A stretch of 64,000 bases of DNA from positions 28,883-92,882 of the forward strand of contig JBAZWU010000011.1 of the NCBI GenBank assembly GCA_041660185.1, given 5' to 3'. Each line of letters opens with the position of its first letter. Positions within the stretch are counted from its first letter, which is position 1. The notes beneath the pieces were generated by a model. The model had not been told where the DNA came from, did no database searches, and saw only the letters and a program-made list of their open reading frames with translations. The position numbers and the translations under genes were made by a program. This document shows, in pieces, positions 8,129 to 59,397 of the stretch. The stretch is from Elusimicrobiota bacterium. GTDB lineage: Bacteria > Elusimicrobiota > Elusimicrobia > 2-01-FULL-59-12.

Positions 8129-8364
8129 GTAATTATTTTACCTATTTGCTGATGGCGAAGGGGGTGTCCCAGCGCAAAACGGTCAAGTTTTTGCTGAATG
8201 AAACCACAGTCGTCATCCCCCGCGGTTGTTGGCGGGGGATCTCTCCGTCAATGATGGATCCTCCGCCAGTGGCTGCGGAGGATGACGACGTGAGTGACCG
8301 CGGGGATGACGTCAAGGGCGGCTTACGCATCGGATTATTTAGGTGAATGAAGTAAAATATAGAT

Positions 8365-31442: not shown

Positions 31443-31568
31443 CGTCATCCCCGGCAGCCACTGGCCGGGGATCCAAACAGTCTTGACGTCAACGTATAGA
31501 TTCCCCGCCAGTACCCGCGGGGAATGACGAATGATTGGCAGCGCCAGAATCCGCGGGGGATGACGTTT
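31443..31568. repeat. tandem double-hairpin repeat, family 'CGTCATTCCCCGCGG...CCGCGGGGAATGACG', copy 1 (intergenic)
   Basis: 'gtcatccccggcagccactggccggggatcc' ... 'ttccccgccagtacccgcggggaatgacg' ... 'ccgcgggggatgacg'. Related copies are at 33432-33490 and 44037-44127. Confidence 0.75.
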
Positions 31569-31570
31569 TA

Positions 31571-33424
31571 TCATCGGGCCACCCCCACGTTTTCCCACCG
31601 GGCGAAGAGTGAATTCCACCCCGAACGCAGGATGAGAGCGATGTCCAGCCAGAGGCTTTGCCGCTTCACGTAAAGCAGGTCATAACGAAATTTATTCCGG
31701 CGCTTGACATCCCGCGCGGCAAAGACCTGCGCGACGCCCGTGAGCCCGGGACGTAAACGGACCCGCTTCTGGTAACCGGGAATTTTTTCCAGGGAGATCT
31801 CGTCTTTGATCCACCCCCGGGCTTCAATCTCACTCGGCATCAGCGCCCGCGGCCCGACAAAACTCATATCGCCTTTGAGAATGTTCCAAAGCTGCGGAAT
31901 CTCATCCATGGCGGTGCGGCGGCACCACTGGCCGACGCGCGTGATGCGGGGATCCCCTCGGTGCGCCTGGCGGCGGTCGTACTCGGGCAACTCCATTCTG
32001 ACCATCGAGCGGAATTTGAGCGCCAGAAAAGGAATCCCGAACCGTCCCACGCGCTCCTGGCGATAAAAAACCGGGCCGCGATCCTCCAGGACGATGGCCA
32101 GAGGAATCACCAGCCAGAAAGGTAGTGAGACCACAAACCCGGCCATGGCCAGAACGATGTCGAGGCACCGCTTGAGCGGGTATTCGCGGAACAATTCCGC
32201 ATCCGAGCGCAAGGTCTGTTCGAGCAACCCGGGAACGGTGGCCAGTAACCGGTCGCGGCTCGCTTCTTTTTCGATATGGGTTCGCGCGGCCTTTCCCATG
32301 GCAGCCACCCGCTCCGGGGCGCTGGCAAGCTCCAGAATCGCCATTTCGAGAAGCTGGGCATTCCCCGGAGACACCACGACACCGGCTTCGGTTTCTTTCA
32401 CCAGACGGCTGAGCGCTGTTTCAGGAGAAGAAACCGCGATCAGGGGCCGGCCGCACGCCATCTGGTTCAGAATCTTGGAGGACAGGCTCAGGTCCGCCAT
32501 CCGGCGCAGCTCCATCACGATTCCCACGTCCGCGCTGGAAAGGACTTCGGCCAGGCGTTCTTTCGGCTGAAGCGGCAGGAGCGTCACATTCGGGAGCGGA
32601 TGCTCGGACAGACGCTTCTCCAGCGCGGCCCGGTAGTTGCCGTCTCCGATAATGACAAAAGCGATCGAAGGGCGGTCCCGCAGCCCAGCGGCCACGTCAA
32701 TCAGTTCATCCAGCCCCTGATGAATCCCGAGACTGCCCGCGTAAAGCACGACAAATTTTCCCTCCAGTTTGTGTTCCCGGCGGAAAGCGGTTTCCCTGGG
32801 CATTGGTCGCATGGTGTGGGTGTCCACCCAATTCGGCAAGAGCGCCAGGGAAGTGGCGGAGATCTCTTTCGTCTGAACACGATCCCGCATGGGAACGCTG
32901 ATGGTGGAGATGAGGTCCGCCCGACGTAAAATCCAGCGCTCGATTGTCGTCAACACCGCCACCAGCCCCCGGCCGCGCAAAAATCCGACGGCCTGGCCGG
33001 CGTCCACCTGCAGGTCTTGAAGATGCAGCCACAGCCGGCTTTTGTTGAACTGCCGGTGGATAGCGGCGGCCAGCCCTACGCCAAAGGGAGGTGAAACCGC
33101 CAACACCACATCGGCGCGGCAGCGAAAGAGCGCGGGCAGGGAGGTGAGCATGAACGACAATTCGCAGAAGAAACGCCCCAGCGCGGTCTGGCGGGACGGG
33201 ACATAGAGCCATCGCCGCCACACATCCGCGGCTCCGACTTTTTCGTGAACCTGCCACCGTCCCCGGTAACCCTCCCGGATGCGCCACTGCGGATAATACG
33301 GCAGCGCGGTCAGAACCTGAACGGTGTGACCGAGTTTGAGAAGGTGTTCGACGAGCTCGGTGTTGTAGTAGGCGATGCCGATCGAATCAGGATAAAAGGA
33401 ATTGGTGTAGAGAAGAATCTTCAT
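31571..33424 (-). CDS. bifunctional fusion: GT4 (group 1) glycosyltransferase + C-terminal polyprenyl-phosphate sugar-phosphate transferase (WbaP/WcaJ-type 'bacterial sugar transferase' domain)
   Basis: The N-terminal part is 'MKILLYTNSFYPDSIGIAYYNTELVEHL' (GT4 fold), ending about '...GRPLIAVSSPETAL'. The C-terminal part is 'VGRFGIPFLALKFRSM...DEIPQLWNILKGDMSFVGPRALMPSEI...RPGLTGVAQV', the sugar transferase catalytic motif. The start is placed at MKILL; the upstream ORF extension reads through a hairpin repeat. Confidence 0.8.
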   Translation of the reverse strand: MKILLYTNSFYPDSIGIAYYNTELVEHLLKLGHTVQVLTALPYYPQWRIREGYRGRWQVHEKVGAADVWRRWLYVPSRQTALGRFFCELSFMLTSLPALFRCRADVVLAVSPPFGVGLAAAIHRQFNKSRLWLHLQDLQVDAGQAVGFLRGRGLVAVLTTIERWILRRADLISTISVPMRDRVQTKEISATSLALLPNWVDTHTMRPMPRETAFRREHKLEGKFVVLYAGSLGIHQGLDELIDVAAGLRDRPSIAFVIIGDGNYRAALEKRLSEHPLPNVTLLPLQPKERLAEVLSSADVGIVMELRRMADLSLSSKILNQMACGRPLIAVSSPETALSRLVKETEAGVVVSPGNAQLLEMAILELASAPERVAAMGKAARTHIEKEASRDRLLATVPGLLEQTLRSDAELFREYPLKRCLDIVLAMAGFVVSLPFWLVIPLAIVLEDRGPVFYRQERVGRFGIPFLALKFRSMVRMELPEYDRRQAHRGDPRITRVGQWCRRTAMDEIPQLWNILKGDMSFVGPRALMPSEIEARGWIKDEISLEKIPGYQKRVRLRPGLTGVAQVFAARDVKRRNKFRYDLLYVKRQSLWLDIALILRSGWNSLFARWENVGVAR

Positions 33425-33431
33425 AAGAACC

Positions 33432-33490
33432 CCGTCATCCTCCGCGACCGCTGGCGGAGGATTCCCCGCCAGAACCCGCGGGGAATGACG
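33432..33490. repeat. double-hairpin repeat (CGTCATTCCCCGCGG family), copy 2, between carbamoyltransferase stop and GT-fusion start
   Basis: 'ccgtcatcctccgcgaccgctggcggaggattccccgccagaacccgcggggaatgacg'. Confidence 0.75.
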
Positions 33491-35219
33491 CGCGAGAGGG
33501 CTTCTCAATCCAGTAATCGCCGAGCACGAGCAGGTCCATCTGCGTGCGCAAAAAGCAGTCGATCGCTTCCTCGGGACGGCACACGATGGGCTCGTCTTCG
33601 TTGAACGACGTATTGAGAACGACCGGAACGCCCGTGAGGCGCTCAAAAGCGCTGATCAGCTCCCAGTAACGCGGGTGCGTCTGACGATGCACCGTCTGGA
33701 CCCTCGCGGTCCCGTCCACATGTGTAATCGCAGGAACGCTGGCACGACGTTCGGGCTTCACGATGTAATTCATGAGCATGAACGGAGACTCGGCAGGCCC
33801 GTCGAACCACTCACGGCATTTTTCCGCCAGCACCGACGGGGCAAACGGCCGGAACGCTTCCCGGTTCTTGATGCGGGCATTCAAAACGCTCTTCATATTC
33901 GCCCGGCGGGGATCGGCCAGAATGCTGCGGCTCCCCAGCGCGCGCGGCCCGGCTTCCATGCGGCCCTGGAACCAGCCCGTAATTTTTCCGTCGGCGATTG
34001 CCTGCGCGGTCCGGCCGCAAATCTCCGGGTCCTTCTGCACCGCCATACCGCGCTCACGAAGCGCCGCTTCAATCTGCGCGTCGGAATACTGAGGACCCCA
34101 ATACACGTGGTCCATATGAAAACGCGGCGGCGGCTCGGCCTGCGTGTAGGCGTGATAAAGCGCCCCGCCCAGCGACGTTCCCCCGTCTCCCGCATCCGGC
34201 TGAATGTATACCTGCTCGAAGGGGGTTTCTGTCTGAATTTTCCCGTTCATCACGCAGTTCAGCGCGACCCCGCCAGCGAAACACAACCGTTTCTCCCCGG
34301 TCTCGCGGTGCAGGGTGTGCAGCAGATGAAAAAAGAGCTCTTCGGTGACCGCCTGGACCGCAAAGGCCAGGTCTTCGTGCTCCGGGTTCAGCGCGGATTT
34401 CGGCATGCGCGCCGGTCCGAGCAATTGGTTAATCTTGGATGAGAAAAGCGGGCCGTAGGACGGTGTTTTTTCCCAGACCTCAGCGACCGATCCGTTCTGG
34501 TGTTGAAAGTAATCCAGATTGAGAGACAAAAGACCGTTGGCGAGCGGATGGATCAGCCGGCGGACCTCGGGAACCCGGCTGGCCCGGCCATAAGCCGCCA
34601 GCCCCATCACTTTCCCCTCATCCCCGTAATGGGTAAAACCAAGATGCTGGCTGATCGCCGTATACAGAAATCCGAGCGAATGCGGGAAATAGACGCGCTT
34701 CAAGATGCGGATCTGGTTGCCTTCGCCCAAGGCGAGAATAGCGCTGACGCCATCGCCCATCCCGTCGATAGTGAGAATCGCCGCCCGGTCAAAGGACGAC
34801 GCGTAGTATGCACTGGCAACATGGGCGACATGATGTTCCACATGCACGATCGGCAGAGAGATTCCGTTAAAGCCCGGAGCGAACGCTTGAACCAGCGCCT
34901 GCCGCACATCCAGGACGTGCCGGCCCTGCGACAGACGGCTGCGCAAGAAGGACGGTGACAGGATTTTCGGATGGGTCACGACGTGAGCGGCTTTCGCCCA
35001 GAAATTGGCTTTTGGATCTTTTGAAACGGTAATGACGGAGAGATCTTTCGGCTGAAGCCCCGCCTCGCTCAGACAATACCGGATGGCTTTCTCCGGAAAA
35101 CCGGCGCAATGCTTGATCCGGTTAAAGCGTTCTTCCGCGGCAAAAGCCATGAGCTTCCCGTCAACAAGCAGGGCCGCCGAAGCATCTCCGTGGTAAGCGT
35201 TTATCCCAAGGATCTTCAT
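33435..35219 (-). CDS. carbamoyltransferase (NodU/CmcH family)
   Basis: 'MKILGINAYHGDASAALLVDGKLMAFAAEERFNRIKHCAGFPEKAIRYCL' is the canonical NodU/CmcH N-terminus. The C-terminal 'YVxD' region is conserved. Confidence 0.85.
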   Translation of the reverse strand: MKILGINAYHGDASAALLVDGKLMAFAAEERFNRIKHCAGFPEKAIRYCLSEAGLQPKDLSVITVSKDPKANFWAKAAHVVTHPKILSPSFLRSRLSQGRHVLDVRQALVQAFAPGFNGISLPIVHVEHHVAHVASAYYASSFDRAAILTIDGMGDGVSAILALGEGNQIRILKRVYFPHSLGFLYTAISQHLGFTHYGDEGKVMGLAAYGRASRVPEVRRLIHPLANGLLSLNLDYFQHQNGSVAEVWEKTPSYGPLFSSKINQLLGPARMPKSALNPEHEDLAFAVQAVTEELFFHLLHTLHRETGEKRLCFAGGVALNCVMNGKIQTETPFEQVYIQPDAGDGGTSLGGALYHAYTQAEPPPRFHMDHVYWGPQYSDAQIEAALRERGMAVQKDPEICGRTAQAIADGKITGWFQGRMEAGPRALGSRSILADPRRANMKSVLNARIKNREAFRPFAPSVLAEKCREWFDGPAESPFMLMNYIVKPERRASVPAITHVDGTARVQTVHRQTHPRYWELISAFERLTGVPVVLNTSFNEDEPIVCRPEEAIDCFLRTQMDLLVLGDYWIEKPSRASFPAGSGGESSASGRGG

Positions 35220-35272
35220 CGCTTGGGATATAACAGGACAACTGTGCGATTTCCAGCGTTTTTTAAACAAAA

Positions 35273-36937
35273 TTGGTATATTTTTACCTGATGATTTGGA
35301 CAAAAAATAGAGTCGGATTTCTCTTTGTCTTTCTGGGTTTACTTCAAGCCTGGGCGAACCGGTTTTACATGAATTCCGACGGGATCTCCTACATCGAGAT
35401 CGCGCAGGCGTACGCCCGGGGTCAGTGGCAGCAAGCCTTCAACACCTATTGGAGTCCGCTGTACTCCTGGATTCTCGCCATTGTGTTCCGGCTCTTTAAG
35501 CCTTCTTTGTTCTGGGAGTTCCCCCTGGTCCATCTGGTTAATTTTCTGATCTACCTGTTTACGCTGGCCGCTTTCAGCTATCTGCTGAAGCAATTTCTCA
35601 GGTGGCAAGGAGTACAAGAACCTTCCTTGCGCCGGGTTTGGATCTGGCTGGGATATTCACTCTTTCTCTGGTGCGCCTTAAGCGCCGTCAGTCTCTATTT
35701 GGTCAGCCCGGATCTGCTGACGGCCGGCATCATTTTCCTGGCCGCGGGACTCTGGATTCGTCTTCAGCAAGGCGAGACCACCTGGACCCTCTTCGGTTTA
35801 TGGGGTGCGGTTTTAGGGATCGGGTATCTGGCCAAAACCTTCATGTTCATTTTCGGTTTCTTGTGGATCGTCGCCGGCGTCGGCTGGGCGGTCTGGAAAC
35901 GGAATTCCAACATCAACCGCTACAGCGCTGCTTTGGCAGGATTTCTCTTCATCGCCGTTCCTTTCGTCGGAGCGATCTCCAAAGCCAAAGGTCAATGGAC
36001 TCTGGGAGAAGCCGCCCCGATCAATTACGCCTTTCATGTTAACCGGGCGCCAATTCTCCCTTTCTGGCGCGGGGATTTTCCGCCGGGCAGCAAGGGAACG
36101 CATCCCCCCCGCTTGATCATGTCCATGCCGCGCGTTTATGCGTACGACCGGGACATCCCCGCTAGTTATCCCATCTGGTATGACCCCTCTTACTGGATGG
36201 AGGGACTGCGGCCCCGCTATGGCCTGATCGATCACTGGCGCTCGCTGCGGATGCGTTTCAACGACGATACCCACCTGCTTTTGTACTCGCAAGGGAGTCT
36301 ATGGGCGGGAGCTCTGATTCTTCTCTGGGGTGCTAAAAGACGGAAACCCGGAGCGATGCTTCTGCTTCCGGGCCTTTTGGGAGTGGCGATCTTTGCGATA
36401 GTTCTGGTGGAACCCCGTTATATCGGTCCCTTTGTCGTTTTAATCTGGTTCGGCGTATTTTCGGGGATGGAAGTCCCGACGGAAGAGATGGCCCGGAAGT
36501 GGTTCGGCTGCGTGGTATGGGCGATGCTTCTCAACCCGCTGGTCTATGTAGGATATGAAACCGCTAACGCGCTCCAAAGAACGGTACGGCAGACGCTGAC
36601 CTTTCCGCACACCCGGAATCATGCGTACTGGCAGGTCGCGCAAGACCTGCACCAGTTGGGACTCAGGGAACACGACCGCGTGGCCTGCATGTTTGAAAAA
36701 GGTTATGGACAATATTGGGCACATCTCGGGGCGTTTCGCTTGGTGGCAGAAATTCCTTTTCCGGACGATGTGTCGCAAGCCCAACCGCCGCTCATGGCCG
36801 CCATCGCCGATGTCCTGCGGCAGGAAGGGATCCGCGCCATCGTGGCATGGCCTCACGCGGTTTCCCCCCACGTTTTAAAAAACCTTGGCGGTTGGCAAGA
36901 GCTGAAAGACGCCCCTTTTGTCGTTTATCTCCTATGA
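35273..36937 (+). CDS. GT-C fold membrane glycosyltransferase (ArnT/PMT-like), paralogue 1
   Basis: Polytopic N-region with 'NSDGISYIEIAQAYARGQWQQAFNTYWSPLYSW' (D-x-x-Y-x-x-A ... W-x-x-P motif of PMT/ArnT family) and a soluble C-domain. About 40% identical by eye to the next gene. Confidence 0.6.
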   Translation: MVYFYLMIWTKNRVGFLFVFLGLLQAWANRFYMNSDGISYIEIAQAYARGQWQQAFNTYWSPLYSWILAIVFRLFKPSLFWEFPLVHLVNFLIYLFTLAAFSYLLKQFLRWQGVQEPSLRRVWIWLGYSLFLWCALSAVSLYLVSPDLLTAGIIFLAAGLWIRLQQGETTWTLFGLWGAVLGIGYLAKTFMFIFGFLWIVAGVGWAVWKRNSNINRYSAALAGFLFIAVPFVGAISKAKGQWTLGEAAPINYAFHVNRAPILPFWRGDFPPGSKGTHPPRLIMSMPRVYAYDRDIPASYPIWYDPSYWMEGLRPRYGLIDHWRSLRMRFNDDTHLLLYSQGSLWAGALILLWGAKRRKPGAMLLLPGLLGVAIFAIVLVEPRYIGPFVVLIWFGVFSGMEVPTEEMARKWFGCVVWAMLLNPLVYVGYETANALQRTVRQTLTFPHTRNHAYWQVAQDLHQLGLREHDRVACMFEKGYGQYWAHLGAFRLVAEIPFPDDVSQAQPPLMAAIADVLRQEGIRAIVAWPHAVSPHVLKNLGGWQELKDAPFVVYLL

Positions 36938-38592
36938 GACTGAATTTTAGACGAACCTTCTGGCTTCTGGCTGTTCCCCTTGGATTTTTCCAAGCCTGGG
37001 CCCTCCGGTTTAACATGGACCCCGACGGGATTTCTTATCTCGAAGTGGCTCAAGCCTATGCGCAAGGCCGATGGAACGACGCCTTCAACGCCTACTGGAG
37101 CCCGCTCTTTTCATGGATCCTGGCGGTCTTCCTGAAAGTGGTACATCCTTCCTCTTACTGGGAATTTCCGCTGATTCACCTGATCATTTTTTTCATTTAC
37201 CTGTTTGTGCTGGCAAGCTTTGACGACCTGCTCCGGCAGTTCCTGGCCTGGCACAAGACCCCCGCCGCCGATGCGGATCCCGGCTGGCACACGCTTCCGG
37301 AAGCGCTCTGGGAATGGATCGGGTACGCTCTGATTCTCTGGTGCACACTCTGGGCCCTGGGCCTGGCGCAAGCCACACCCAACCTGCTGGTGAGCGGATT
37401 TATTTTTCTGTCGGTCGGAATCGCTTTCCGTCTGCAGCGGGAAAATGTCTCCGGATGGCTTTATGTTTTATCGGGAGTCGTCCTTGGATTCGCTTATTTT
37501 GCCAAAGCCTATGCGTTCCTTTTCGGAGTGGCCTGGATCCTGGGGATGACGGGCGCGGCCTTTCTTCAGCGGCGGCCTATTCGACGTTATGCGCTGACCT
37601 TGGCTGTTTTTATTATCGTAACCGGCCCTTATATAGGCCTGTTGTCCCGGACGAAAAAACACTGGACCTTTGGCGACGCTTCATCCATCAATTACGCGGT
37701 CCATGTCAATCAAGCCCTTCCCTTGCCTTTCTGGACCGGGGATTTCCCGCCTGGCAGCGTGGCCAAACGCCTGGTTCGACAAATCATGAACCATCCGACG
37801 ATTTATGAATTTGATCGAGACATTCCTGCCAGTTTTCCCCTCTGGTATGACCCGGCTTACTGGATGGACGGCTTACGGCCCCGTTTTTCTGTCCGGGATC
37901 ACCTGAGCGCCTGGCGCGGGCATCTGAATGAATACACCCGGCTTCTTTTTTATGAACAGATCAGTCTCTGGACCGGAACGTTGATTCTCTTCGGGATGGC
38001 CCGGCGCTGGAAGCGGCTGATCAAACACGGGTGGCCGCTGCTGGTGCCGGCGCTGATCGGCTTTGGCATCTTCGCTCCGGTGCTGATGGCCAACAGCTAC
38101 ATCGCGCCGTTTATTGTTCTCGGCTGGCTGGGGATTCTGGCTGGGTTGGAATTTCCAACCGATGGGGTCACTTCGCGATGGTTGAGGCGCGTCGCGGGCG
38201 TTATGATCGCTGTCCCGCTTCTGCAAGTCGGTTACCGAATCGTCTCAGTTGTGCCGACGCGTTCAACCCCGTTCCACTGGCAGGTGGCGCAGAAGCTGCA
38301 CGAGTTAGGCCTGCGTCCGGGGGACCGGGTGGCGAGCTTTGACACCGGCTTTGGACAGTTCTGGGCGCATATCGGCGGATTTCGCCTGATCGCTGAAATT
38401 ACCGTTCCTGAGGAAGTGACCCTTATTACTCCGTCGAAGATGACGGAAATCGTTGGGGTCTTACGGGCGAAGGGCATTCGCGCATTCGTGGGACGGCAGG
38501 AACTGATTCCAGAAGACAGCCTCGGCGGCTGGCAACAACTTCACAACACACCTTACGCCGTTTACCTGATCAACCCAACTGAGGGGACGTAG
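36934..38592 (+). CDS. GT-C fold membrane glycosyltransferase (ArnT/PMT-like), paralogue 2 (ATGA overlap with paralogue 1)
   Basis: 'MRLNFRRTFWLLAVPLGFFQAWALRFNMDPDGISYLEVAQAYAQGRWNDAFNAYWSPLFSW' parallels paralogue 1. Its ATG at 36934 overlaps the TGA of the upstream gene. Confidence 0.6.
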   Translation: MRLNFRRTFWLLAVPLGFFQAWALRFNMDPDGISYLEVAQAYAQGRWNDAFNAYWSPLFSWILAVFLKVVHPSSYWEFPLIHLIIFFIYLFVLASFDDLLRQFLAWHKTPAADADPGWHTLPEALWEWIGYALILWCTLWALGLAQATPNLLVSGFIFLSVGIAFRLQRENVSGWLYVLSGVVLGFAYFAKAYAFLFGVAWILGMTGAAFLQRRPIRRYALTLAVFIIVTGPYIGLLSRTKKHWTFGDASSINYAVHVNQALPLPFWTGDFPPGSVAKRLVRQIMNHPTIYEFDRDIPASFPLWYDPAYWMDGLRPRFSVRDHLSAWRGHLNEYTRLLFYEQISLWTGTLILFGMARRWKRLIKHGWPLLVPALIGFGIFAPVLMANSYIAPFIVLGWLGILAGLEFPTDGVTSRWLRRVAGVMIAVPLLQVGYRIVSVVPTRSTPFHWQVAQKLHELGLRPGDRVASFDTGFGQFWAHIGGFRLIAEITVPEEVTLITPSKMTEIVGVLRAKGIRAFVGRQELIPEDSLGGWQQLHNTPYAVYLINPTEGT

Positions 38593-38658
38593 TTGCAACT
38601 TTGCATCGACTACGCCTCTCGTTGGCAAAGACAGCTGCAAAGTTGCAACTACGTCCCC
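38583..38658. repeat. REP pair (BIME-like): 23-bp 'GGGGACGTAGTTGCAACTTTGCA' and its inverted copy separated by 30 bp
   Basis: Forward copy 38583-38605, inverted copy 38636-38658. They sit between convergent gene ends. Confidence 0.85.
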
Positions 38659-39158
38659 TCCCCCAGACCCATCAGATCGACCATCGCTTGTTCGACGAGG
38701 CGGATCATGGGTGAGGGTTCTGTGCTGGGGCTTGGCGGCGGAGGATTATGGCTGGCTTTTCGGATCGCTTCCCGTAAATCAAAAATCTCATAGGCGGGGA
38801 TGACCCGCCCTTCATCGGCCAGTGCGCGGATCAACTGAAGCTGATGGTTATTCACATGCTCGCCATAGCGAGCCAGGCGCGGCACCACAATGGGGACTTT
38901 ACCGAGTGAGATCGCCTGCAGAAGCGTCCCGCAGCCGCCGTGACAGATGATGAGCCGGGCCTCCTTCAGGCACTCGAGAAAACGGTCCGCGGAAAGAAAA
39001 GCTTCGGTCCGGCTGTGACGGGGTTGGAAGTTTTCATTATGGCCCGTCTGCATAAAGACCGGCTCGCCTTGAAAGAGCGGGGTACCGGCCAGCGCGTCGA
39101 CCGCTTCCAACAGCCGGGAGAACCCCTGAGTCGCGTTGCCGACGGTCACAAAGATCAT
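38649..39158 (-). CDS. Alg13-like glycosyltransferase subunit (GT28 C-terminal domain; PssE-like)
   Basis: 'MIFVTVGNATQGFSRLLEAVDAL...LIICHGGCGTLLQAISLGKVPIVVPR...HQLQLIRALADEG' matches the Alg13/MurG-C pattern. The start is placed at MIFVTVG; an earlier in-frame Met at ~39260 is possible. Confidence 0.7.
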   Translation of the reverse strand: MIFVTVGNATQGFSRLLEAVDALAGTPLFQGEPVFMQTGHNENFQPRHSRTEAFLSADRFLECLKEARLIICHGGCGTLLQAISLGKVPIVVPRLARYGEHVNNHQLQLIRALADEGRVIPAYEIFDLREAIRKASHNPPPPSPSTEPSPMIRLVEQAMVDLMGLGEGT

Positions 39159-41443: not shown

Positions 41444-42921
41444 GGGTTGGCCCTCCGTTCGCGCACCCAGCGCAGCGCCACAATGTAAATGATGATGCTC
41501 TGGAGAATGGAACCAAAGGATGGCGCCAACGCCGTCTCGATATTAATCAGGCTGGTGAGAATAACGGCAAAGATGGCGATGCCGCCTTCGCCGGCGTTCT
41601 CATGATTAAACAGACGTTCCATCGTGGCATAGACCATACCCAGAATCCCCATGATGAACAGCACCCCCAGCGCTCCAAAATTGACGTAGCTTTCAACCAG
41701 GTGCGGCATGCCGATGGAGGTTGTCCCGATGCTGGCCGGGTCCTGTAAGCCGTAGGCCACACCAAAAAATTCGTTCGCCACCTGGGCATTCGGCTTCTTG
41801 GGCCAGATGGCCCGCGGGATTAAGGTGTAAATAAAATAGTCGTACGTTTTCCCTAATTGGAACGGAACATGGCGCGGCGTCATGGTCAACACATGGCCGA
41901 ACAGATGAATACAGTCCGTCCGCTGGATGGAACTTCGGGTACTCGATTGAACGCTCCGGCGGCCGTGCAGCAGGTCATTCCAACTGGTCACAGACAGAGT
42001 CGACCAGATCGCGATGCGGTCAAAGATACTGGTACTGGCCATCCCCTGTTTCCAGACCATATTCCGGTATTCCCCTTTTATCGGCTGGATAAAAGCGAAG
42101 AAAAGGACACCGATCATCGCAAAGTGCCAGGGGAACTTCTTCCGTGCCATCCAGTTAACAGACGTCACGATCAGGATCGGATCCAATAGATTTCGCACGT
42201 TGCCCATCGCCATTCCCAGCATGACCAGGATGGCGAAGATGACGACATAAGCCAGCCGCCCCCACCACCGCAGATTTCCCTTCAGAAAGTACCAGTACAA
42301 CAGGCCAAAACCGAGCAGCGACAATTTAATCATGAGACCGTACACGGCAAACAGGCGCGGCGGAATGACGACGCGTTCAGTCAGGCCAAGCCACAAGAGC
42401 GCGCTGCCGGTGATCCCCATCACGGTGGCGAGCGGCTGCGCCCGGACCGCCTCAAGTGTCAGGCGTACCTTAGGGACCAGAAGATTCAGTATGGAAAAAC
42501 GGAAGAACCAGAAACCGCACTCCAGCGCGATGATTCCCGCAAGCGTCAGCCGCAACGCCCTCTCGGTATATCGCGCGGGGACGATCAGGATCCCCCCTCC
42601 CCAGGAGGATTCGACCAAGGGTTCAGCATAGAAGGCGGGCAGGGCGTAACTGGCCGCATAAACCAGACAGATAATCGGGAACACCGGCACGCCCGGCTGA
42701 CGTTTGGCCAGATGAATGACGCTCGGCAAAAGACAAACCAGCACGACCAGATAGGCCAACCCCTGCTGCACGATCGAGACGTCCGGCCGCGTCACGTAAC
42801 GGAGGATCGGGATTAAAATCAAACTCAACAGAAAATAGCCGAACCAGACCTGGAACGCCCGGCCCTCGATGGGCCGCTGGGGCAGGCGGCTAAAACGGAT
42901 GTTGGTCACGGCATTATTCAC
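41440..42921 (-). CDS. polytopic membrane protein, O-antigen/EPS polymerase-like (Wzy-type) candidate
   Basis: 493 aa with more than 10 TM segments and a larger loop. It sits in the glycan locus between a GT and an amidotransferase. Assigned by context only. Confidence 0.45.
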   Translation of the reverse strand: MNNAVTNIRFSRLPQRPIEGRAFQVWFGYFLLSLILIPILRYVTRPDVSIVQQGLAYLVVLVCLLPSVIHLAKRQPGVPVFPIICLVYAASYALPAFYAEPLVESSWGGGILIVPARYTERALRLTLAGIIALECGFWFFRFSILNLLVPKVRLTLEAVRAQPLATVMGITGSALLWLGLTERVVIPPRLFAVYGLMIKLSLLGFGLLYWYFLKGNLRWWGRLAYVVIFAILVMLGMAMGNVRNLLDPILIVTSVNWMARKKFPWHFAMIGVLFFAFIQPIKGEYRNMVWKQGMASTSIFDRIAIWSTLSVTSWNDLLHGRRSVQSSTRSSIQRTDCIHLFGHVLTMTPRHVPFQLGKTYDYFIYTLIPRAIWPKKPNAQVANEFFGVAYGLQDPASIGTTSIGMPHLVESYVNFGALGVLFIMGILGMVYATMERLFNHENAGEGGIAIFAVILTSLINIETALAPSFGSILQSIIIYIVALRWVRERRANP

Positions 42922-45900
42922 AACACTTCTTTCCTTCCGTCCAGAATGGTTTCAAGACGCTGACGAAAACGCTCAACGGAAAACGTTTGTTCCAAGTGTT
43001 CCCGGCCCGCTTCTCCGAACCGGCTGGCCAGTGCCGCGTCTTTCAACAACAACACCAGAGCCGCGACCAGGGACGATCCCTGGCGGGGTTCCACGAGCAG
43101 CCCGGTCACATCATGAACAACCACTTCCGGAACACCACCGGCCCGCGCGCCCACACAGGGCTTGCCATGCGACATCGCTTCCAGAAAAACGATCCCGAAT
43201 CCTTCGCCTTCGCTCGGCAGGGCGAACACATCGCAGGCCTCGTAATAGGATGGAAGATCGGCTCCGGATACACGGCCGGCAAATATAACCTGTTGATTAA
43301 CTCCACAGCGCCGGGCCAAGGCTTCCAGACGGGAACGGTCAGGACCGTCGCCGACCACCACCAGAAAAGCCGCTGGGACGTCCCGCCGGACATCCGAAAG
43401 ACGTTCGATCATCCAGTCGATATTTTTGTAATGTTCCGCATCCGACAGCCGGGAAACAGTCAGAATCATCGGGCCCTCGGGAAGAGACAACTCCCGCCGT
43501 GTTTTCATGACCACGCGGTTGTTAAAAGCAGGATCGATCGTATCCGGAAAAACATCCCCCTGCTCCGGCGATAGCCCATTGCGCGAGAGCATCTGATCGA
43601 GCGTATACCGGCTGACCGCCAGAATCCGTGACATCTTTCGCAAACCCAGACGGCGCAAAAGCGGCAGCTTCTGCCAGACATCTATTCCATGAGCGATCGC
43701 ATAGGACTGGCTGTTCTTTTTTTGCATCCAGACGAGCGGCGAGAAATGCGCATGGCCAAAGAACGCACCGTCCGCTTTTCGTAAGGAACAAACCGCCTGT
43801 TTGAAGAACCTGAGCCGGCTTCCTCCAAAAGAACGCACGTCGGCACCGGCCAGCCGCCGGGCGGTCGGGGCATCATGCAAGACCAGAAACTGCAGCGCCC
43901 ATCCTCGCTCTTTGGCGATGGCGCGCAAGGCCGCCACCAAAGCTCGATTGAAGGTCGTAATACCGCCCAGCGCTCCAAAGAGATCCGTCAGCAAGACAAC
44001 CCATTGCGGTTTGGGGACAAATCGAAAGGTCCTGAAGTCGTCATTCCCCGCGGCCACTGGCGGGGAATCCAAAATTGTCGTACGGCATTGCTGGATCCCC
44101 GGCCAGTTACCGCCGGGGATGACGTCATTTGATCCGCCATAAAATCGAGCCACAATCACCGTGGCCCAGGCGCGGGACCAGTGCAGGCGGCCGGCGCGAA
44201 CCCCGGCCCAGATGGCTTGCACCGCTTTCCGTTCCAGCGGCGTATGCTCCAGCGCCATGGCTTCGAAATCATCCGCTTTTTGACGGAACCACTCGCCGAA
44301 AGGAAACGTGAAACCTTGCTTCGGGCGATCCCACACCTCCCGCGGAAACTCCGGGCCCATCGCTTCGACCAGAAGCCCTTTGGACTGGCTGGACCGCCGG
44401 ACGTCCGGCGGCAGGCGCAGGATTTCCTCAACCAGACGATGGTCTAGAAACGGCACACGCAGCTCCAGCGAATGGGCCATGCTCATCACATCGCTGTCTT
44501 TCAGCAACTGGTTCTGGAGATAGTGATCGAACTCCAAAAGTCGCAGGCGTTCTTCCTCCGGGAAGCGCTTGAGGACGTCGACCCCTTCAGGAACCCAGCG
44601 CGCGCGTTCGGTATCGCGTACGCTTACACCGAGAAGCCCGGCGATGCGTTCCGGCGGAAAAAGAGCTCGGAAAAGACGATACGGAGAGGCCGGATCCATA
44701 TCCCTCAGACACCAGAGCTTGTCCGCAACACCGGGATGGGACGGACGGCTCAGGGATTCCACCAGGCTCAGCAAAGGACCCCGCACACCCGGCGGCACGC
44801 ACGAAATCCCACGCACAGCAGCGCCGATCCACCGGGCGTGATGGAGATGGCGGTATCCCGAAAACAGCTCGTCCCCCCCCAGTCCGGAGAGGACCACTTT
44901 GAGTCCGGCCTCGTGCGCGGCTTTGGACACGACATAGGTATTGATGCCGTCGAGTGTGGGCTGGTCCATCGCCGCCAGCATCCGGGGCAGTTCGTCTTCA
45001 AACGCCTGCCGGCGCACCCGGATTTCCCGGTGGTCTGTGCCGTACTGGCGCGCCACCAGGCGCGCGTAACGCCCCTCATCGTAGGCGGGTTCATCGAAGA
45101 GGACCGACAACGTCGTGACATGCCCCGGCTGAAGACGGCTGGCCAGCGCCGTCAGTGAAGAGGAATCAATGCCTCCGCTGAGGAAAATTCCAAGCGGGAC
45201 ATCGCTGATCAAGTGCCCTTGAACCGCGTCCAGCAGCTGCCGGCGTGTTTCTTCCACGGCTTCCAGACGGGTGACGGGCCGGACGGGTTGATCCAAAACT
45301 CGAGCCAGGTCCCAGTAGTTTGTGGGTTCCACCGGACCGCGGCCCAACGACAGATAATGTCCGGCTGGAAGACTCCAGACCTTTTGAACGGTGGTTAGAG
45401 GAGCAGGGACCGATCCAAGCTCCAAAAATCGCAGGAGGCTCTCGGCGTTTAGCCGGTCGGGGATAAGCCCGCTGGCTTGCATGGCCCGCACCTCGGAGGC
45501 AAAAAGAATTTTCTCGTGGTCTTGATAGTAGTAAAGCGGTTTAATGCCGAAACGGTCACGGGCCAGAAACAGGCGCGGGCCGGAGCGAGCCGACAGATCC
45601 AAGAGCGCGAAAGCGAACATTCCCCGCAGGTGTTCCAGAAGCCCTTCCATCCCCCACGCTTCATATCCGTGCACCAGGACCTCGGTATCGGTGCGCGAAA
45701 CGAAACGATGGCCCGCGGTTTCCAGTTCCCGGCGCAGATCCTGAAAATTGTAGATTTCCCCGTTGAAAACAACCTGAACGGTCTGGTCTTCATTGGCCAT
45801 CGGTTGGCGGCCGGCGGAGGAGGTGTCCAGAATGGAGAGACGGCGGTGGCCCAGGAGCGCCTGCGGATGGCGGAATAACCCCTGATCGTCAGGGCCGCGG

Positions 45901-45992
45901 TGAAGCTGTGCATCCAGCATCCGCTCGACGCCCTGAATCTCCGGCGGCGCTACAACTCCCTGGGTGCGAAAGAGGCCAGCGATGCCGCACAT
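42918..45992 (-). CDS. fusion protein: asparagine synthetase (glutamine-hydrolysing, AsnB/WbpS-like amidotransferase) + GT4 glycosyltransferase
   Basis: The N-terminus 'MCGIAGLFRTQGV' is a class-II GATase Cys2. 'FLSGGIDSS' is a PP-loop. The C-terminal ~380 aa is 'RFVPKPQWVVLLTDLFGALGGITTF...EGFGIVFLEAMSHGKPCVGARAGGVPEVV' (GT4). The inter-domain linker is encoded by a hairpin repeat. Confidence 0.8.
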   Translation of the reverse strand: MCGIAGLFRTQGVVAPPEIQGVERMLDAQLHRGPDDQGLFRHPQALLGHRRLSILDTSSAGRQPMANEDQTVQVVFNGEIYNFQDLRRELETAGHRFVSRTDTEVLVHGYEAWGMEGLLEHLRGMFAFALLDLSARSGPRLFLARDRFGIKPLYYYQDHEKILFASEVRAMQASGLIPDRLNAESLLRFLELGSVPAPLTTVQKVWSLPAGHYLSLGRGPVEPTNYWDLARVLDQPVRPVTRLEAVEETRRQLLDAVQGHLISDVPLGIFLSGGIDSSSLTALASRLQPGHVTTLSVLFDEPAYDEGRYARLVARQYGTDHREIRVRRQAFEDELPRMLAAMDQPTLDGINTYVVSKAAHEAGLKVVLSGLGGDELFSGYRHLHHARWIGAAVRGISCVPPGVRGPLLSLVESLSRPSHPGVADKLWCLRDMDPASPYRLFRALFPPERIAGLLGVSVRDTERARWVPEGVDVLKRFPEEERLRLLEFDHYLQNQLLKDSDVMSMAHSLELRVPFLDHRLVEEILRLPPDVRRSSQSKGLLVEAMGPEFPREVWDRPKQGFTFPFGEWFRQKADDFEAMALEHTPLERKAVQAIWAGVRAGRLHWSRAWATVIVARFYGGSNDVIPGGNWPGIQQCRTTILDSPPVAAGNDDFRTFRFVPKPQWVVLLTDLFGALGGITTFNRALVAALRAIAKERGWALQFLVLHDAPTARRLAGADVRSFGGSRLRFFKQAVCSLRKADGAFFGHAHFSPLVWMQKKNSQSYAIAHGIDVWQKLPLLRRLGLRKMSRILAVSRYTLDQMLSRNGLSPEQGDVFPDTIDPAFNNRVVMKTRRELSLPEGPMILTVSRLSDAEHYKNIDWMIERLSDVRRDVPAAFLVVVGDGPDRSRLEALARRCGVNQQVIFAGRVSGADLPSYYEACDVFALPSEGEGFGIVFLEAMSHGKPCVGARAGGVPEVVVHDVTGLLVEPRQGSSLVAALVLLLKDAALASRFGEAGREHLEQTFSVERFRQRLETILDGRKEVL
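44037..44127. repeat. double-hairpin repeat (CGTCATTCCCCGCGG family), copy 3, located in-frame inside the AsnB-GT4 fusion as the interdomain linker
   Basis: 'gtcattccccgcggccactggcggggaatcc...ccccggccagttaccgccggggatgacg'. It is translated (minus strand) as '...NDVIPGGNWPGIQQCRTTILDSPPVAAGNDD'. Confidence 0.75.
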
Positions 45993-49234: not shown

Positions 49235-49347
49235 TTTGACTGGTTCTCCCCTCTTAACGGCCTAGGGGAAGTCTAAGGGGTGCTTTGGGTTTTCGCAAGG
49301 TAAATTTTTCGCAGGAAACCACTAAATCCGCGGGGATTTGAAGTATA

Positions 49348-49436
49348 CCCTCACCCCTACCCTCCCCCTCCGCAGGGGGAGGGAGCACAACCTATCTTCC
49401 CCCTCTCCCTCAGGAGGGAGAGGGCTGGGGTGAGGG
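49348..49436. repeat. P/G/E-coding palindromic 'GEG' repeat, copy B (intergenic, upstream of wza-like gene)
   Basis: 'ccctcacccctaccctccccctccgcagggggagggag...ccccctctccctcaggagggagagggctggggtgaggg'. Confidence 0.8.
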
Positions 49437-49452
49437 CAGAGTTGAGTTATTC

Positions 49453-52209: not shown

Positions 52210-53367
52210 TTGATGTCTTTGGCTATGAAATCCCCTCACAAACCGGCGTTCGAGCTTCAACTCCTATGCAAACTCCTGGCTTTGCGGCCAAGCCAGGAGG
52301 AATGTCTTTCAGACCTCCGCGCACCAGGTTTTTGCTGGGATCTATTCCTTCAGTTGGCGGAGTACCACGGGGTGATCGGATTTCTCTACGAGGCCCTGAC
52401 CGAAACCGGCCTGGCCCGGGAAGTTCCACCCAAGCTCCTGGAAGCGCTGCGGCATTCCACTCTGGTTCTCCTGGAAGAGCACCTGCAGCACAGGAGCGCG
52501 ATCCGGAAAACGCTGGAAACCCTGAACGCGGCCGGGTTGGAATTTATCGTTATTAAAGGGTGGTCACACGCCGAATCACTTCATGGGAACCCCTGCGCCC
52601 GTCCCATCACGGACCTGGACCTTCTCGTACACGACACGAAGGCGGCTCAAGCCCTGCTGAAACAACAGAGACTGCCGGACCCATCGATCGTAGACTGGCA
52701 TATCTATCCCACAAACACGTCGGATCTGCCGTCCCGCATGCGGTGCCTGCAGCTCGACATCCAGACGCTCTGGGCGGATTCGCGCCTCGCCACGATCACA
52801 GACACGCCGGCGCGCGTTCTTTCTCCGGCTGACCAGGTCATCGCCCTGGTGATCGACTTCACGATTTCGCATGGGTTCGGGAGGCTACTCCTTTTAAAGG
52901 AGATCCTGCTTCTGGCTGAAAAAGTCGGATGGGATGCGCTGGTGAAGAGGGCTCAACTATTCCAGGCTGACATTTTGCTGTACTTGACCCTCCGCATGGG
53001 AGAGGAACTTCTGCGATTCCCGGTTCCCCTCGATATTTTAAAAATCTTAGGGACTCGCTTAAGGCAAGAAGAACACTGGCTGGAAAAACGGCTGATTCAA
53101 AATCCGCTTTTTACCCCGGCCCGGTATTTCTGTATTCCGATTCTCCTGCCTTCCTGGGCCGATCGCCTGAGTTTTGCCAAAGAACTGCTCTGGCCTCCCC
53201 CCTATTGGTTCGAGCTCCGCAGCGAAAAACCGTCTCTCTGGCGCCACCTCATCCATGACGCGACGCTTATCGGCAAGGCATGCGCCATTTTATGGAACGT
53301 CAGGGGACGTAGTTGCAACTTTGCAAAAGGTGCCGGAAAAAATCCTTTTTTCCCCAAGACCGGGTAA
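52210..53367 (+). CDS. uncharacterised nucleotidyltransferase family protein (PF14907/NTP_transf_5-like), RiPP-cluster accessory type
   Basis: 'LNAAGLEFIVIKGWSHAESLHGNPCARPITDLDLLVHDTKAAQALLKQQ' matches the IKG...R..DIDLLV...D signature of this family. Confidence 0.65.
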   Translation: MMSLAMKSPHKPAFELQLLCKLLALRPSQEECLSDLRAPGFCWDLFLQLAEYHGVIGFLYEALTETGLAREVPPKLLEALRHSTLVLLEEHLQHRSAIRKTLETLNAAGLEFIVIKGWSHAESLHGNPCARPITDLDLLVHDTKAAQALLKQQRLPDPSIVDWHIYPTNTSDLPSRMRCLQLDIQTLWADSRLATITDTPARVLSPADQVIALVIDFTISHGFGRLLLLKEILLLAEKVGWDALVKRAQLFQADILLYLTLRMGEELLRFPVPLDILKILGTRLRQEEHWLEKRLIQNPLFTPARYFCIPILLPSWADRLSFAKELLWPPPYWFELRSEKPSLWRHLIHDATLIGKACAILWNVRGRSCNFAKGAGKNPFFPKTG

Positions 53368-53423
53368 AACAAGAAATATAGGCCATTTCCTGTCTCGTTG
53401 TGCAAAGTTGCAACTACGTCCCC
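53303..53423. repeat. REP pair: forward 23-bp REP (53303-53325) and inverted copy (53401-53423) with 75-bp spacer
   Basis: Exact matches to GGGGACGTAGTTGCAACTTTGCA and its reverse complement. They sit between the nucleotidyltransferase and ABC ATPase genes. Confidence 0.85.
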
Positions 53424-53446
53424 TGACGTTTTATATACTCAAACGT

Positions 53447-55745: not shown

Positions 55746-55785
55746 GCCACCCTCGGCCCGGCAGAAAAACGAGCCGGGAGCACTA

Positions 55786-55863
55786 GGGGACGTAGTTGCA
55801 ACTTTGCATAAGGTATTCATATGACACAAGATACCTTTGATGCAAAGTTGCAACTACGTCCCC
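55786..55863. repeat. REP pair: forward REP (55786-55808) and inverted copy (55841-55863) around a palindromic 32-bp spacer
   Basis: Exact 23-bp matches. The spacer 'taaggtattcatatgacacaagatacctttga' is itself an inverted repeat. Confidence 0.85.
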
Positions 55864-55887
55864 TGGCGGTCTTTCGCGACATCTCCG

Positions 55888-58012: not shown

Positions 58013-59274
58013 GACGATGCCCCCTCACCCCTACCCTCCCCCTCAACAGGGGGAGGGAGCGTAAGATTTTTCGCGGATGTATCCCCTCTCCCTGCTGAGG
58101 GAGAGGGGCTGGGGGTGAAGGTCAAGATGCTGGCAGTTTGCCGAGCTTTCGCTACTTCACAGAAATAAGGGACCGGCGCTTCCATGGACCCTGCCTCATG
58201 GATCGCCATCACGGGATTTTTGTCGCAGAACAGATGGGAGGAACAACTCCGGCACGCCGACTCCCCGGTGTAGCGGGCCTGATTGATTTCCTCGGCTGAG
58301 CGCTGGAACGCCTCGGAAACAGGGATCGTTTTCAGATCATACGACGGCCAGGTGGTGAACGTGCAGGGGCGAAACACACCGTACGGACTGACCGTCAATT
58401 GATTGGTCCCGCATCCGCAGCGAAAGAGCCGGTCATCCGGGGGGGGACCCTCACCCCAACCCTCCCCCTCAACAGGGGGAGGGAGTATGAAATCTGCGGG
58501 GGATCCCCCCTCTCCCTGTTGAGGGAGAGGGCAAGCAGGACGACCGCTAGGTCGGACAGGCGCGGGTGAGGGTTTACACTCCTCTGCCACCTCCAGTTCA
58601 GCCACCTCGGCTCCAGATAACCGGTACTGCGTGGAGGAAAGGTCCCCGTTCAAACGCGGGTAAATCGTGGGATAGAGACTGAAATCCACCCCCAATCCTT
58701 CCACGTACGCTCTGATCTCGCCCAATTCCTGACGATTAACGGTCATGGCCTTGGTTTTGATCGCCACCGACAAACGCCGGTCCAGTAACCGGCGGATCCC
58801 TGCCTGAAAACACGCGTAGGAACCCGGCACCTGGGTCACCCGCTCAAAGGTCTCGGCACGAACGCCATGCAAACTCACCTCCAACTGAAAGGGAGGGTCC
58901 TTGGCGAGAAAATCCGCGATCTCGTCCGTGATCGTTGTCCCGTTGGTGAATAACGCGATCAGGAATCCTCTCTCCTTGGCCGCACGATATATATCCTTGA
59001 ATCGCGGATGAAGTACCGCTTCTCCTCCGGTGAGGGTAAGCCAGAGCACGCCGGCGGAGGCCAGGTCGTCAAGAATCCGGATCATTCCCGGCAGCGGCAA
59101 TTCCCGCGACAACGCCGTCGGGGTGTTAAAGGGGTCTGTAAAACAATGGACGCAATGGAGATTACATCGGTAAGTCAGTTCCAACTGTGCCTTGAGAGGA
59201 CTCCGATTTTCGACGCTCCGGGAAAAGACCCGGGCGCTGAACACACTGTACATTTCTTCTTGAAACTTGCTCAT
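58009..59274 (-). CDS. radical SAM/SPASM domain enzyme (rSAM-2) carrying in-frame repeat-encoded P/G/E-rich linker and C-terminal tail
   Basis: 'TYRCNLHCVHCF' is the rSAM motif. SPASM 'CGCGTN...CTFTT...CRSCSSHLFCDK'. The segment 'PLPQQGEGGSPADFILPPPVEGEGWGEGPPP' between the rSAM and SPASM domains and the tail 'LPPPVEGEGRGEGASS' are encoded by the palindromic repeats at 58447-58572 and 58021-58120. Confidence 0.8.
   Translation of the reverse strand: MSKFQEEMYSVFSARVFSRSVENRSPLKAQLELTYRCNLHCVHCFTDPFNTPTALSRELPLPGMIRILDDLASAGVLWLTLTGGEAVLHPRFKDIYRAAKERGFLIALFTNGTTITDEIADFLAKDPPFQLEVSLHGVRAETFERVTQVPGSYACFQAGIRRLLDRRLSVAIKTKAMTVNRQELGEIRAYVEGLGVDFSLYPTIYPRLNGDLSSTQYRLSGAEVAELEVAEECKPSPAPVRPSGRPACPLPQQGEGGSPADFILPPPVEGEGWGEGPPPDDRLFRCGCGTNQLTVSPYGVFRPCTFTTWPSYDLKTIPVSEAFQRSAEEINQARYTGESACRSCSSHLFCDKNPVMAIHEAGSMEAPVPYFCEVAKARQTASILTFTPSPSPSAGRGDTSAKNLTLPPPVEGEGRGEGASS
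58021..58120. repeat. P/G/E-coding palindromic 'GEG' repeat, copy C (overlapping rSAM-2 3' end / HprK-like start)
   Basis: 'cccctcacccctaccctccccctcaacagggggagggag...cccctctccctgctgagggagaggggctgggggtgaagg'. Confidence 0.8.
58447..58572. repeat. P/G/E-coding palindromic 'GEG' repeat, copy D (long variant), inserted in-frame inside rSAM-2
   Basis: 'ccctcaccccaaccctccccctcaacagggggagggag...cccccctctccctgttgagggagagggcaagcaggacgaccgctaggtcggacaggcgcgggtgaggg'. It shares its tail with copy A (26757-26886). Confidence 0.8.
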
Positions 59275-59396: not shown

Positions 59397-59397
59397 G

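Follow-up and report, generated by a model that had tools for sequence, protein, structure and literature searches.

A palindromic repeat as the in-frame linker of an AsnB-GT4 fusion protein in an Elusimicrobiota exopolysaccharide locus

INTRODUCTION

Small palindromic repeats are usually taken to be extragenic clutter or regulators that act at the RNA level. How does such a repeat come to lie in the middle of a coding sequence, exactly where two enzyme domains meet? The question is raised by a 64,000-nucleotide stretch of an Elusimicrobiota metagenome-assembled genome (MAG; GenBank assembly GCA_041660185.1, contig JBAZWU010000011.1, positions 28,883 to 92,882), which we call the window and whose own numbering is used here unless a locus handle precedes the coordinates. 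On its minus strand, within an exopolysaccharide (EPS) locus, one open reading frame (ORF) encodes an asparagine synthetase-like (AsnB) amidotransferase followed by a GT4 glycosyltransferase, and most of the linker between them is coded by a hairpin repeat. A first-pass annotation had suggested that this fusion may have arisen by read-through of an intergenic repeat between two formerly separate genes. The genes are indeed separate in the nearest relatives, and the repeat sits at their ancestral boundary; that the repeat caused the fusion we rate as somewhat better than an even chance.

RESULTS AND DISCUSSION

A repeat-coded linker between AsnB and GT4

The fused AsnB-GT4 ORF (42918..45992, minus strand) runs uninterrupted for 1024 amino acids, and its reading draws on the ORF list, Pfam, NCBIfam, an identical database protein, and AlphaFold2. 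Residues 1 to 620 form an AsnB-like glutamine amidotransferase, residues 621 to 662 a linker, and residues 663 to 1024 a GT4 glycosyltransferase; the Pfam matches cover residues 34 to 610 (GATase/Asn_synthase) and 676 to 998 (GT4). The AsnB half opens with MCGIAG, the start of a Cys2 N-terminal nucleophile (Ntn) amidotransferase, continues into an Asn_synthase domain, and passes the NCBIfam asparagine synthase model TIGR01536 with 437 bits (cut-off, 267). The most similar specific model, TIGR03108 for the XrtA/PEP-CTERM exopolysaccharide amidotransferase, gives 441 bits, which is below its cut-off of 817, so the AsnB half is not that equivalog. No interruption occurs across the 362 codons of the GT4 half, which retains its conserved motifs and is modeled with high confidence. 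An identical protein from an Elusimicrobiota MAG, NCBI MFA5976305.1 (P0001), is annotated as one single protein. The fused protein is presumably both produced and active.

The linker comprises 42 residues (S621 to P662; 44007..44132, minus strand), as delimited by alignment with split and fused homologues and by AlphaFold2, and it consists of a 3-residue flank, the repeat-coded part, and a 12-residue unique flank, DFRTFRFVPKPQ. The repeat itself is an 86-nt head-to-head dimer (44039..44124) of two units, 44039-44071 in plus and 44092-44124 in minus orientation, with a 20-nt spacer. Its core, CGTCAT...ATGACG, extends in frame from the third position of codon 623 to the first position of codon 652, and its minus-strand reading is VIPGGNWPGIQQCRTTILDSPPVAAGND. 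The ORF list, the Pfam matches, and codon mapping thus bear out the placement given in the first-pass annotation, in frame within the continuous ORF and between the two domains, and the translation offered there, SNDVIPGGNWPGIQQCRTTILDSPPVAAGNDD, is correct. The start of the GT4 domain was set at RFVPKP; comparison with relatives puts it at about QWVVLL (residue 663) instead. AlphaFold2, run with a 100-sequence alignment, predicts both domains confidently (mean predicted local distance difference test score [pLDDT], 92.3). Residues 621 to 660 are the sole internal low-confidence stretch, with pLDDT means of 58, 42, 30, and 33 for successive 10-residue blocks, and the model fits a flexible, disordered tether of about 42 residues, about 29 of them repeat-coded.

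Several features mark the linker DNA as a copy of a dispersed repeat. The predicted fold of the linker-repeat region has an energy of -56 kcal/mol (z = -5.1 relative to dinucleotide shuffles), the unit at 44039-44069 matches the 31-nt unit pattern of the family exactly, and the 33-nt form of the same unit is identical to one unit in a sister MAG (locus L010). The non-repeat flanks of 12 nt and 33 nt have only chance-level matches elsewhere in the analysed sequence. The 12-residue flank that follows the repeat has no start codon and shows no resemblance to GT4 N termini (best score, 21, versus 24 for shuffled controls).

AsnB and GT4 in the nearest relatives

The nearest relatives of the AsnB half are seven stand-alone proteins of 617 to 624 amino acids (P0012 to P0018; 58 to 61% identity), which end ...ARFYGK* or ...ARFYGGAS*, exactly where the repeat starts in the window. 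Comparison of orthologous loci had been proposed in the first-pass annotation as one way to check the fusion, and contigs were read for three of the seven (L002, L005, and L006). All three have the gene order Poly_export-Wzz-AsnB-GT4-Wzy-GT4-methyltransferase-Alg14-GT28C-carbamoyltransferase-GT4/Bac_transf, which is the order on the minus strand of the window, and in all three AsnB and GT4 are separate genes that overlap by 11 nt with no repeat between them. The GT4 ATG lies within TTTT-ATG-G, and the AsnB stop codon follows two codons on. Two more distant loci are likewise split; in one the genes are 19 nt apart, and in the other they overlap as ATGA. Among the proteins compared, P0122 and P0123 come from bulk metagenome assemblies and not from repeat-bearing MAGs.

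In a neighbor-joining tree built from 120 AsnB domains, the window and its seven stand-alone relatives form one group in 200 of 200 bootstraps, and the next sister is also stand-alone. Fused proteins fall in seven separate clades, the window's and six others. The nearest GT4 homologues are all stand-alone as well. Fused orthologues with a conserved, non-repeat linker would have spoken against a repeat-mediated origin. Fused homologues with non-repeat linkers do exist (P0002, a Terriglobales group, and a Nitrospirae-type group; 44 to 52% identity in the AsnB half), and they touch the question only superficially, because they are more distant, lie in separate clades, and represent independent fusions, not orthologues. 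A protein search across 5.8 billion clusters found no relative above 61% identity for AsnB and none above 50% for GT4. A search of JGI metagenomes for a repeat-less allele (TTTTATGG-N{17,47}-AATGGGTNGTNYTNYTNAC) gave ten matches, all ten by chance and without AsnB or GT4 homology. Given the AsnB tree, the synteny, and the split state in relatives, the window fusion very probably derives from split genes, and by the same sequence comparisons it is independent of the fusions in other phyla.

The other AsnB-GT4 fusions (P0002 to P0011, P0027, P0033, P0104, and others, from Acidobacteriota, Nitrospirae-type, and other MAGs) have the same domains in the same order, sit in some cases in a similar locus (P0002 is followed by GT4 and methyltransferase genes), and have variable, unconserved linkers. 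They differ from the window protein in that their linkers, of 0 to about 50 amino acids, are free of repeats, and in that they belong to the six other AsnB clades. Such repeated fusion is a Rosetta-stone signal that the EPS-locus AsnB paralogue works with the adjacent GT4. At least six independent fusions besides this one argue that the two act together in exopolysaccharide synthesis, which helps to assign a function to the AsnB paralogue.

The junction at base level

From TTTTATGG to AATGGGTTGT the relatives have 9 nt, versus 131 nt in the window, made up of 12 nt, the core of 86 nt, and 33 nt. The window has gained 122 nt net, a length of 2 modulo 3; the 86-nt core is 2 modulo 3 as well, and the other 36 nt of the gain are 0 modulo 3. 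Relative to AsnB, the GT4 of the relatives lies in the +1 frame, and a gain of 2 modulo 3 is the shift that brings GT4 into the AsnB frame. The repeat lies, to within a few residues, at the ancestral stop/start site, as seen in five split relatives.

Traces of the former GT4 start can still be read. A relic of the start used by the split relatives, the ATG in TTTT-ATG-G, is found at 44138..44140 (minus strand), upstream of the repeat and out of the GT4 frame, and the Arg codon ahead of it is CGA in the window versus AGG or AGA in the relatives (Shine-Dalgarno-like GAGG). Between the repeat and the beta-1 strand of GT4 there is no in-frame start codon, the first being a TTG inside the strand. 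With no in-frame start in that interval, GT4 lacks an obvious independent start of translation, and its expression would depend on the fusion.

Class and structure of the repeat family

To what class does the repeat belong? Thirty distinct units, taken from the window and related MAGs and with their pairs counted by script, have the form CGTC, a 9-bp stem, a loop of about 8 nt, the returning stem, and CCA. The tag is CGTC in 26 of the 30 units and TGTC in the other 4, and all 8 window units carry CGTC; the tail is CCA in 23 and CTA in 4. The stem is 9 bp long (8 bp in a second hairpin type), with A-T at position 1 and T-A at position 2 in 27 of 30 units each. Stem partners pair at 240 of 240 positions, falling to 29 to 60% when the partner is slid by 1 or 2 nt, a result that is partly circular as units were chosen for at least 8 of 9 pairs. 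No such circularity affects the compensatory double changes, which occur at 7 of 8 stem positions, each with two or three Watson-Crick pair types. The shared unit has a loop of about 8 nt and the second hairpin type one of 6 to 9 nt; a 4-nt loop occurs in one unit only (L020 1948-1976).

All four window loci and most of the MAG loci are head-to-head dimers, 58 to 125 nt long with units of 31 to 33 nt. In the window the units always come in facing pairs with their CGTC tags outward, and three of them fit a 31-nt pattern with 28 specified bases exactly. A scan of one genome per species found the exact 31-nt unit in only two Elusimicrobiota MAGs, on 12 contigs (11 in JBGPLV01 and 1 in JBBSDO01), and Rfam has no family that matches the repeats. 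About half of the dimer reading frames (51 of 108) have no stop codon. Although the two ends of a dimer, CGTCAT...ATGACG, form inverted repeats, these are simply the REP tags; no consistent target-site duplication was found in the flanks of the copies compared, and the AATGACG repeat at the linker copy overlaps the element's own terminus. Some copies abut a stop codon or lie within 5 nt of one (L015, L016, and window 31565/31571). A stop codon abutting the CGTC tag was considered as a targeting signal and set aside, with 4 of 38 cases against about 1.8 expected, which is not significant.

These features for the most part match the CGTC-tagged repetitive extragenic palindromic (REP) sequences of Di Nocera et al. 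(2013; PMC3733652). By that definition, they have a CGTC or TGTC (or CCTC) terminal tag, a G+C-rich stem of 8 to 9 bp with complementary A/T at its first and second positions, and an unpaired CCA tail. They occur mainly as head-to-head dimers whose spacers vary, lie mostly near 3' ends between ORFs that converge or run in one direction, and have no dedicated flanking transposase, unlike the GTAG REPs with their REP-associated tyrosine transposases (RAYTs). Most of them are found in Alphaproteobacteria, five phyla in all carry them, and the superfamily includes RPE-4 and RPE-6 of the Rickettsia palindromic elements (RPEs) (PMC3733652). The present element agrees with them in tag, 9-bp stem, CCA tail, head-to-head dimers, location near ORF 3' ends, and some in-gene copies. 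It differs in its loop, about 8 nt (6 to 9 nt in the second type) versus 4 to 5 nt in families CGTC-1 to CGTC-4, of which some CGTC-1 and CGTC-3 sets differ in loop length, and in its Elusimicrobiota hosts, Elusimicrobia not being named in the available part of PMC3733652. Because loop length, one of the defining features, departs from the definition, we treat the element on its sequence as a divergent subfamily of CGTC-tagged REP, dispersed in an Elusimicrobiota clade, and not as a member of CGTC-1 to CGTC-4. The first-pass annotation had not assigned the repeat to this known class.

A second junction and the other window copies

A comparable junction lies further along the same operon. The first-pass annotation had reported two sister copies, both as intergenic. 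Both exist, one spanning 31443-31529 and followed by a partial unit that ends at 31565, the other spanning 33433-33490. A fourth copy was missed, and the 33433-33490 copy is not purely intergenic. The copy at 33433..33490, a 58-nt head-to-head REP dimer, is wedged between the carbamoyltransferase and GT4-Bac_transf genes, which in the relatives overlap as ATGA. It supplies the last 20 codons of the carbamoyltransferase, SRASFPAGSGGESSASGRGG, and the TGA stop codon (33437-33435), which lies within the repeat terminus GGATGACG. The carbamoyltransferase ORF (33435..35303, minus strand) therefore has its 3' end inside the repeat, and its Pfam matches extend no further than residue 601 of 622.

The GT4-Bac_transf gene, identified by Pfam (31571..33424, minus strand), probably starts at the conserved MKILLYTNSFYPD, that is, at ATG 33424, 8 nt past the repeat, and the conserved N terminus MKI(V/L)(F/L)YTNSFYPD in L005 and L006 supports this start. 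The first-pass annotation was right that the upstream extension of the ORF listed as 31571..33646 reads through the repeat copy; the conserved ATG lies downstream of the repeat, and by its sequence the extension from 33424 to 33646 is probably not translated. Repeat read-through can thus lengthen ORFs spuriously, as in 31571..33646, and yet also yield real fusions, which is a warning for annotation. The 33433-33490 copy shows the same kind of event as the AsnB-GT4 junction with another outcome, decided by frame. One operon and one repeat family have two coding outcomes, a tail with a new stop codon in one case and a tether joining two enzymes in the other.

The intergenic cluster at 31443..31565 consists of a REP dimer (31443-31529) and a partial third unit (31535-31565), and it lies upstream of an FAD-oxidoreductase gene (start, 31413) and 5 nt past the stop codon (TGA, 31571-31573) of GT4-Bac_transf. 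Only the 3' arm of the third unit is recognisable, which suggests decay or local rearrangement of the REP cluster. The fourth copy, a 77-nt head-to-head REP dimer (8211..8287), lies between a TauE-like gene (7763-8128, minus strand) and an ORF at 8365-9054 (plus strand).

In-gene copies in the sister MAG

The sister MAG JBGPLV01 shows what else the family can do. There the shared unit is paired with the second hairpin type, CGTCATCCCCGA...TCGGGGATCC, and the dimers are mostly wedged tightly between genes, some of them right behind a stop codon (L015 and L016). Four lie in frame within ORFs: a MutS gene (L009:1-2540, minus strand; repeat-coded residues 428 to 464, with domains I to V on both sides in one frame), a gene for a CCA-adding/poly(A) polymerase-family enzyme (L013:6471-8000, minus strand; residues 112 to 147, in the head domain), an MnmA gene (L017:2255-3451, minus strand; residues 341 to 369), and an unannotated 402-amino-acid ORF (L020:6793-8000, plus strand; residues 219 to 251). 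In alignments with solved structures, the poly(A) polymerase-family enzyme and MnmA each have about 18 to 19 extra repeat-coded residues. The in-gene translation is mostly SSFPA(G/A/V)(S/A)GGES....

With these in-gene copies, RPE-like behaviour is seen in the poorly studied phylum Elusimicrobiota as well. We found no report of such behaviour in Elusimicrobiota, within a limited coverage of the literature. According to PMC3733652, intragenic REP dimers encode 20 to 30 amino acids and often lie in repair and tRNA genes, and the bias is shared here, with MutS, the CCA/poly(A) polymerase-family gene, and MnmA.

How the fusion may have arisen

What order of events could have produced the AsnB-GT4 junction? 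In the ancestor, an EPS-locus AsnB-like amidotransferase and a GT4 would have been separate and translationally coupled, with the GT4 start within the last AsnB codons. A REP dimer with an 86-nt core, 2 modulo 3, would then have arrived at the AsnB/GT4 boundary. Inserted in the overlap, it could in one step have cut GT4 from its own ATG, put the AsnB stop out of frame, and moved the GT4 body into the AsnB frame. Such G+C-rich repeats are often free of stops, and because about half of the frames have none, ribosomes may have read through to give the 1024-amino-acid protein with its disordered tether. The fusion was probably tolerated since both enzymes already cooperate; this is plausible because AsnB and GT4 are adjacent and coupled in the relatives and have been fused independently in at least six other lineages.

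Both the presence of the repeat at or before the fusion and the one-step frame logic are what we infer from the junction, and we lean slightly toward a fusion by read-through of a repeat that was already there. In a stronger form of this account, one insertion of a REP dimer into the overlapping stop and start of two coupled genes would have made a bifunctional enzyme, shifting the frame so as to bypass the upstream stop and capture the downstream gene, and selfish REP-type repeats would serve more generally, in lineages as rich in repeats as these Elusimicrobiota, as a way for domains to become fused. This stronger claim is tentative, and we hold it with less than even confidence. If it is true, ready-made, stop-free, disordered REP linkers would add a mechanism beside the fusion routes of deletion or stop-codon mutation.

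A number of observations weigh against an origin by repeat insertion. In-gene cores of 86, 65, and 68 nt (2 modulo 3) occur, as does one of 87 nt (0 modulo 3); core length therefore does not predict net inserted length, and core length modulo 3, which we considered as a discriminator between scenarios, is ruled out by the same four values. An AATGACG direct repeat flanks the linker copy, and on a reading of the sequence, removal of 84 nt leaves an in-frame 14-residue linker. Cutting out exactly these 86 nt gives an AsnB frame with no stop codon close by, and 45 nt of non-repeat junction sequence has no counterpart in the relatives. The same family inserts in frame within intact JBGPLV01 genes (MutS, the CCA/poly(A) polymerase-family gene, and MnmA). 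No clear placement comes from the GT4 tree, in which the window sits on a long branch; the sister of the window is stand-alone in 48 of 60 bootstraps and includes the GT4 of the syntenic split relatives (L002, L005, and L006) in 12 of 60 only. The nearest relatives are just 58 to 61% identical, which leaves many changes along the branch unsampled.

Much of this would fit the reverse order, in which a small frameshift or stop loss fused the genes through a short linker (about SNDDFRTFRFVPKPQ) and a REP dimer was later inserted in frame into that permissive linker. We regard this order as the less likely of the two. It agrees with the in-frame copies in the three JBGPLV01 genes, which are insertions relative to solved homologues, with the intragenic REP dimers of 20 to 30 amino acids documented in PMC3733652, with the AATGACG repeats and the open in-frame junction after removal of 84 nt, with the repeat-free linkers of 0 to 50 amino acids in the fusions of other lineages, and with the 12-residue post-repeat flank that has no start codon. 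On the other hand, it needs two independent events at the same target of about 45 nt, and the position lies within a few residues of the ancestral stop/start site in five split relatives. The three other window copies are all at gene boundaries, one of them having demonstrably split an overlapping pair, and the 86-nt core alone gives the exact frame shift required. An assembly error or a dead gene is improbable. By this account either a 1-nt assembly error, in or next to a repeat that is rich in hairpins and contains homopolymers, hides a stop and the genes are separate, or the GT4 half is a decaying, unexpressed remnant. The sequence stems from a single contig of a MAG and has no further copy in public databases, an out-of-frame TGA abuts the element (TCAAATGA|CGTCAT) much like the real stops at L015 and L016, and one extra A would bring it in frame. 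Yet an AsnB stop at that point would leave GT4 without a usable start (the first being the TTG in beta-1), the GT4 half is intact over its 362 codons with conserved motifs and a high-confidence model, tag-abutting stops are not enriched in the family, the contig is 94.7 kb long, and the NCBI annotation is a single protein.

Far less probable still is an ancestral fusion, orthologous to those of Acidobacteria and Nitrospirae, in which the linker is only repeat-like and the split relatives are secondary fissions. Fused AsnB-GT4 proteins do occur in several phyla, and the window GT4 is marginally closest to that of the fused P0002 (49% versus 43 to 46% for the split relatives). However, the window lies inside a stand-alone AsnB clade supported by 200 of 200 bootstraps, with fused proteins spread over seven separate clades, and the exact 31-nt pattern match at 44039-44069, together with the 33-nt form identical to the L010 unit, marks a true repeat copy. 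Nothing in the linkers of the other fusions resembles that of the window, and the genomic context of P0002 is unlike the window's.

Comparison with known repeat systems

[quoted passage not shown] The linker copy is clearly a new example of known repeat behaviour and not a new kind of element. Like RPEs (Ogata et al. 2000, as cited in PMC10969869 and PMC3733652), it is a palindrome placed in frame in unrelated genes with the ORF kept. RPE-1-type elements are about 150 bp long, encode a conserved peptide, and have an obligate intracellular alphaproteobacterial host (same sources), whereas here several reading frames are used (SSFPAGSGGES... or VIPGGNWPGIQ...). ERIC, BOX, RUP, BRE, and Anabaena MITEs insert within ORFs or extend their 3' or 5' ends, as here (PMC3184786, PMC10969869), and the carbamoyltransferase tail at 33433-33490 is a typical case of such 3' extension. 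Those elements are mostly MITEs that bear terminal inverted repeats and have target-site duplications, and the cases described modify one gene (PMC3184786, PMC10969869), whereas here a REP-type hairpin dimer, with no demonstrable duplication, joins two. The supply of stop codons has a parallel too, since GTAG REP termini are reported to provide them (PMC3733652) and the CGTC terminus ATGACG gives TGA here.

Where the locus departs from these systems is in bridging two formerly separate genes. No such case is described for CGTC REPs in the available part of PMC3733652, and the RPE descriptions in the parts of PMC10969869 and PMC3733652 available here do not include one. More widely, we found no report of neighbouring bacterial genes joined by a REP or MITE, and none of this family in Elusimicrobia, although the coverage of the literature was limited and is not proof of absence. 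The AsnB-GT4 junction offers a concrete case of how repeats could drive gene fusion.

Other features of the window

Two further repeat families are present in the window. One forms hairpins of the form CCCTCACCCC..CCCTCCCCCTC-loop-AGGGGGAGGGAG, paired with CCCTCTCCCTG-loop-AGGGAGAGGG, at 26757-26860, 49341-49443, 58020-58123, 58448-58547, and 59328-59399, and has no sequence relation to the CGTC REPs. The other, at 38572-38659, 53291-53435, 55778-55871, 61116-61152, 61590-61625, and 62663-62698, forms inverted pairs AGGGGACGTAGTTGCAACTTTGCA / TGCAAAGTTGCAACTACGTCCCCT with arms of up to 61 nt (at 53291-53435).

One pair of the latter family is at the edge of two plus-strand ORFs, 35273-36937 (554 amino acids) and 36715-38592 (625 amino acids), which have no Pfam match. 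They interrupt the minus-strand EPS gene order between GT28C and the carbamoyltransferase and are absent from that position in L002, L005, and L006. The two ORFs have two diverged internal segments in common, one of 146 nt (71% identity) and one of 101 nt (74% identity). Elsewhere, the window contains a full-length tmRNA gene at 12450-12816 (plus strand; Rfam, 138.8 bits) and a tRNA gene at 20566-20639 (minus strand).

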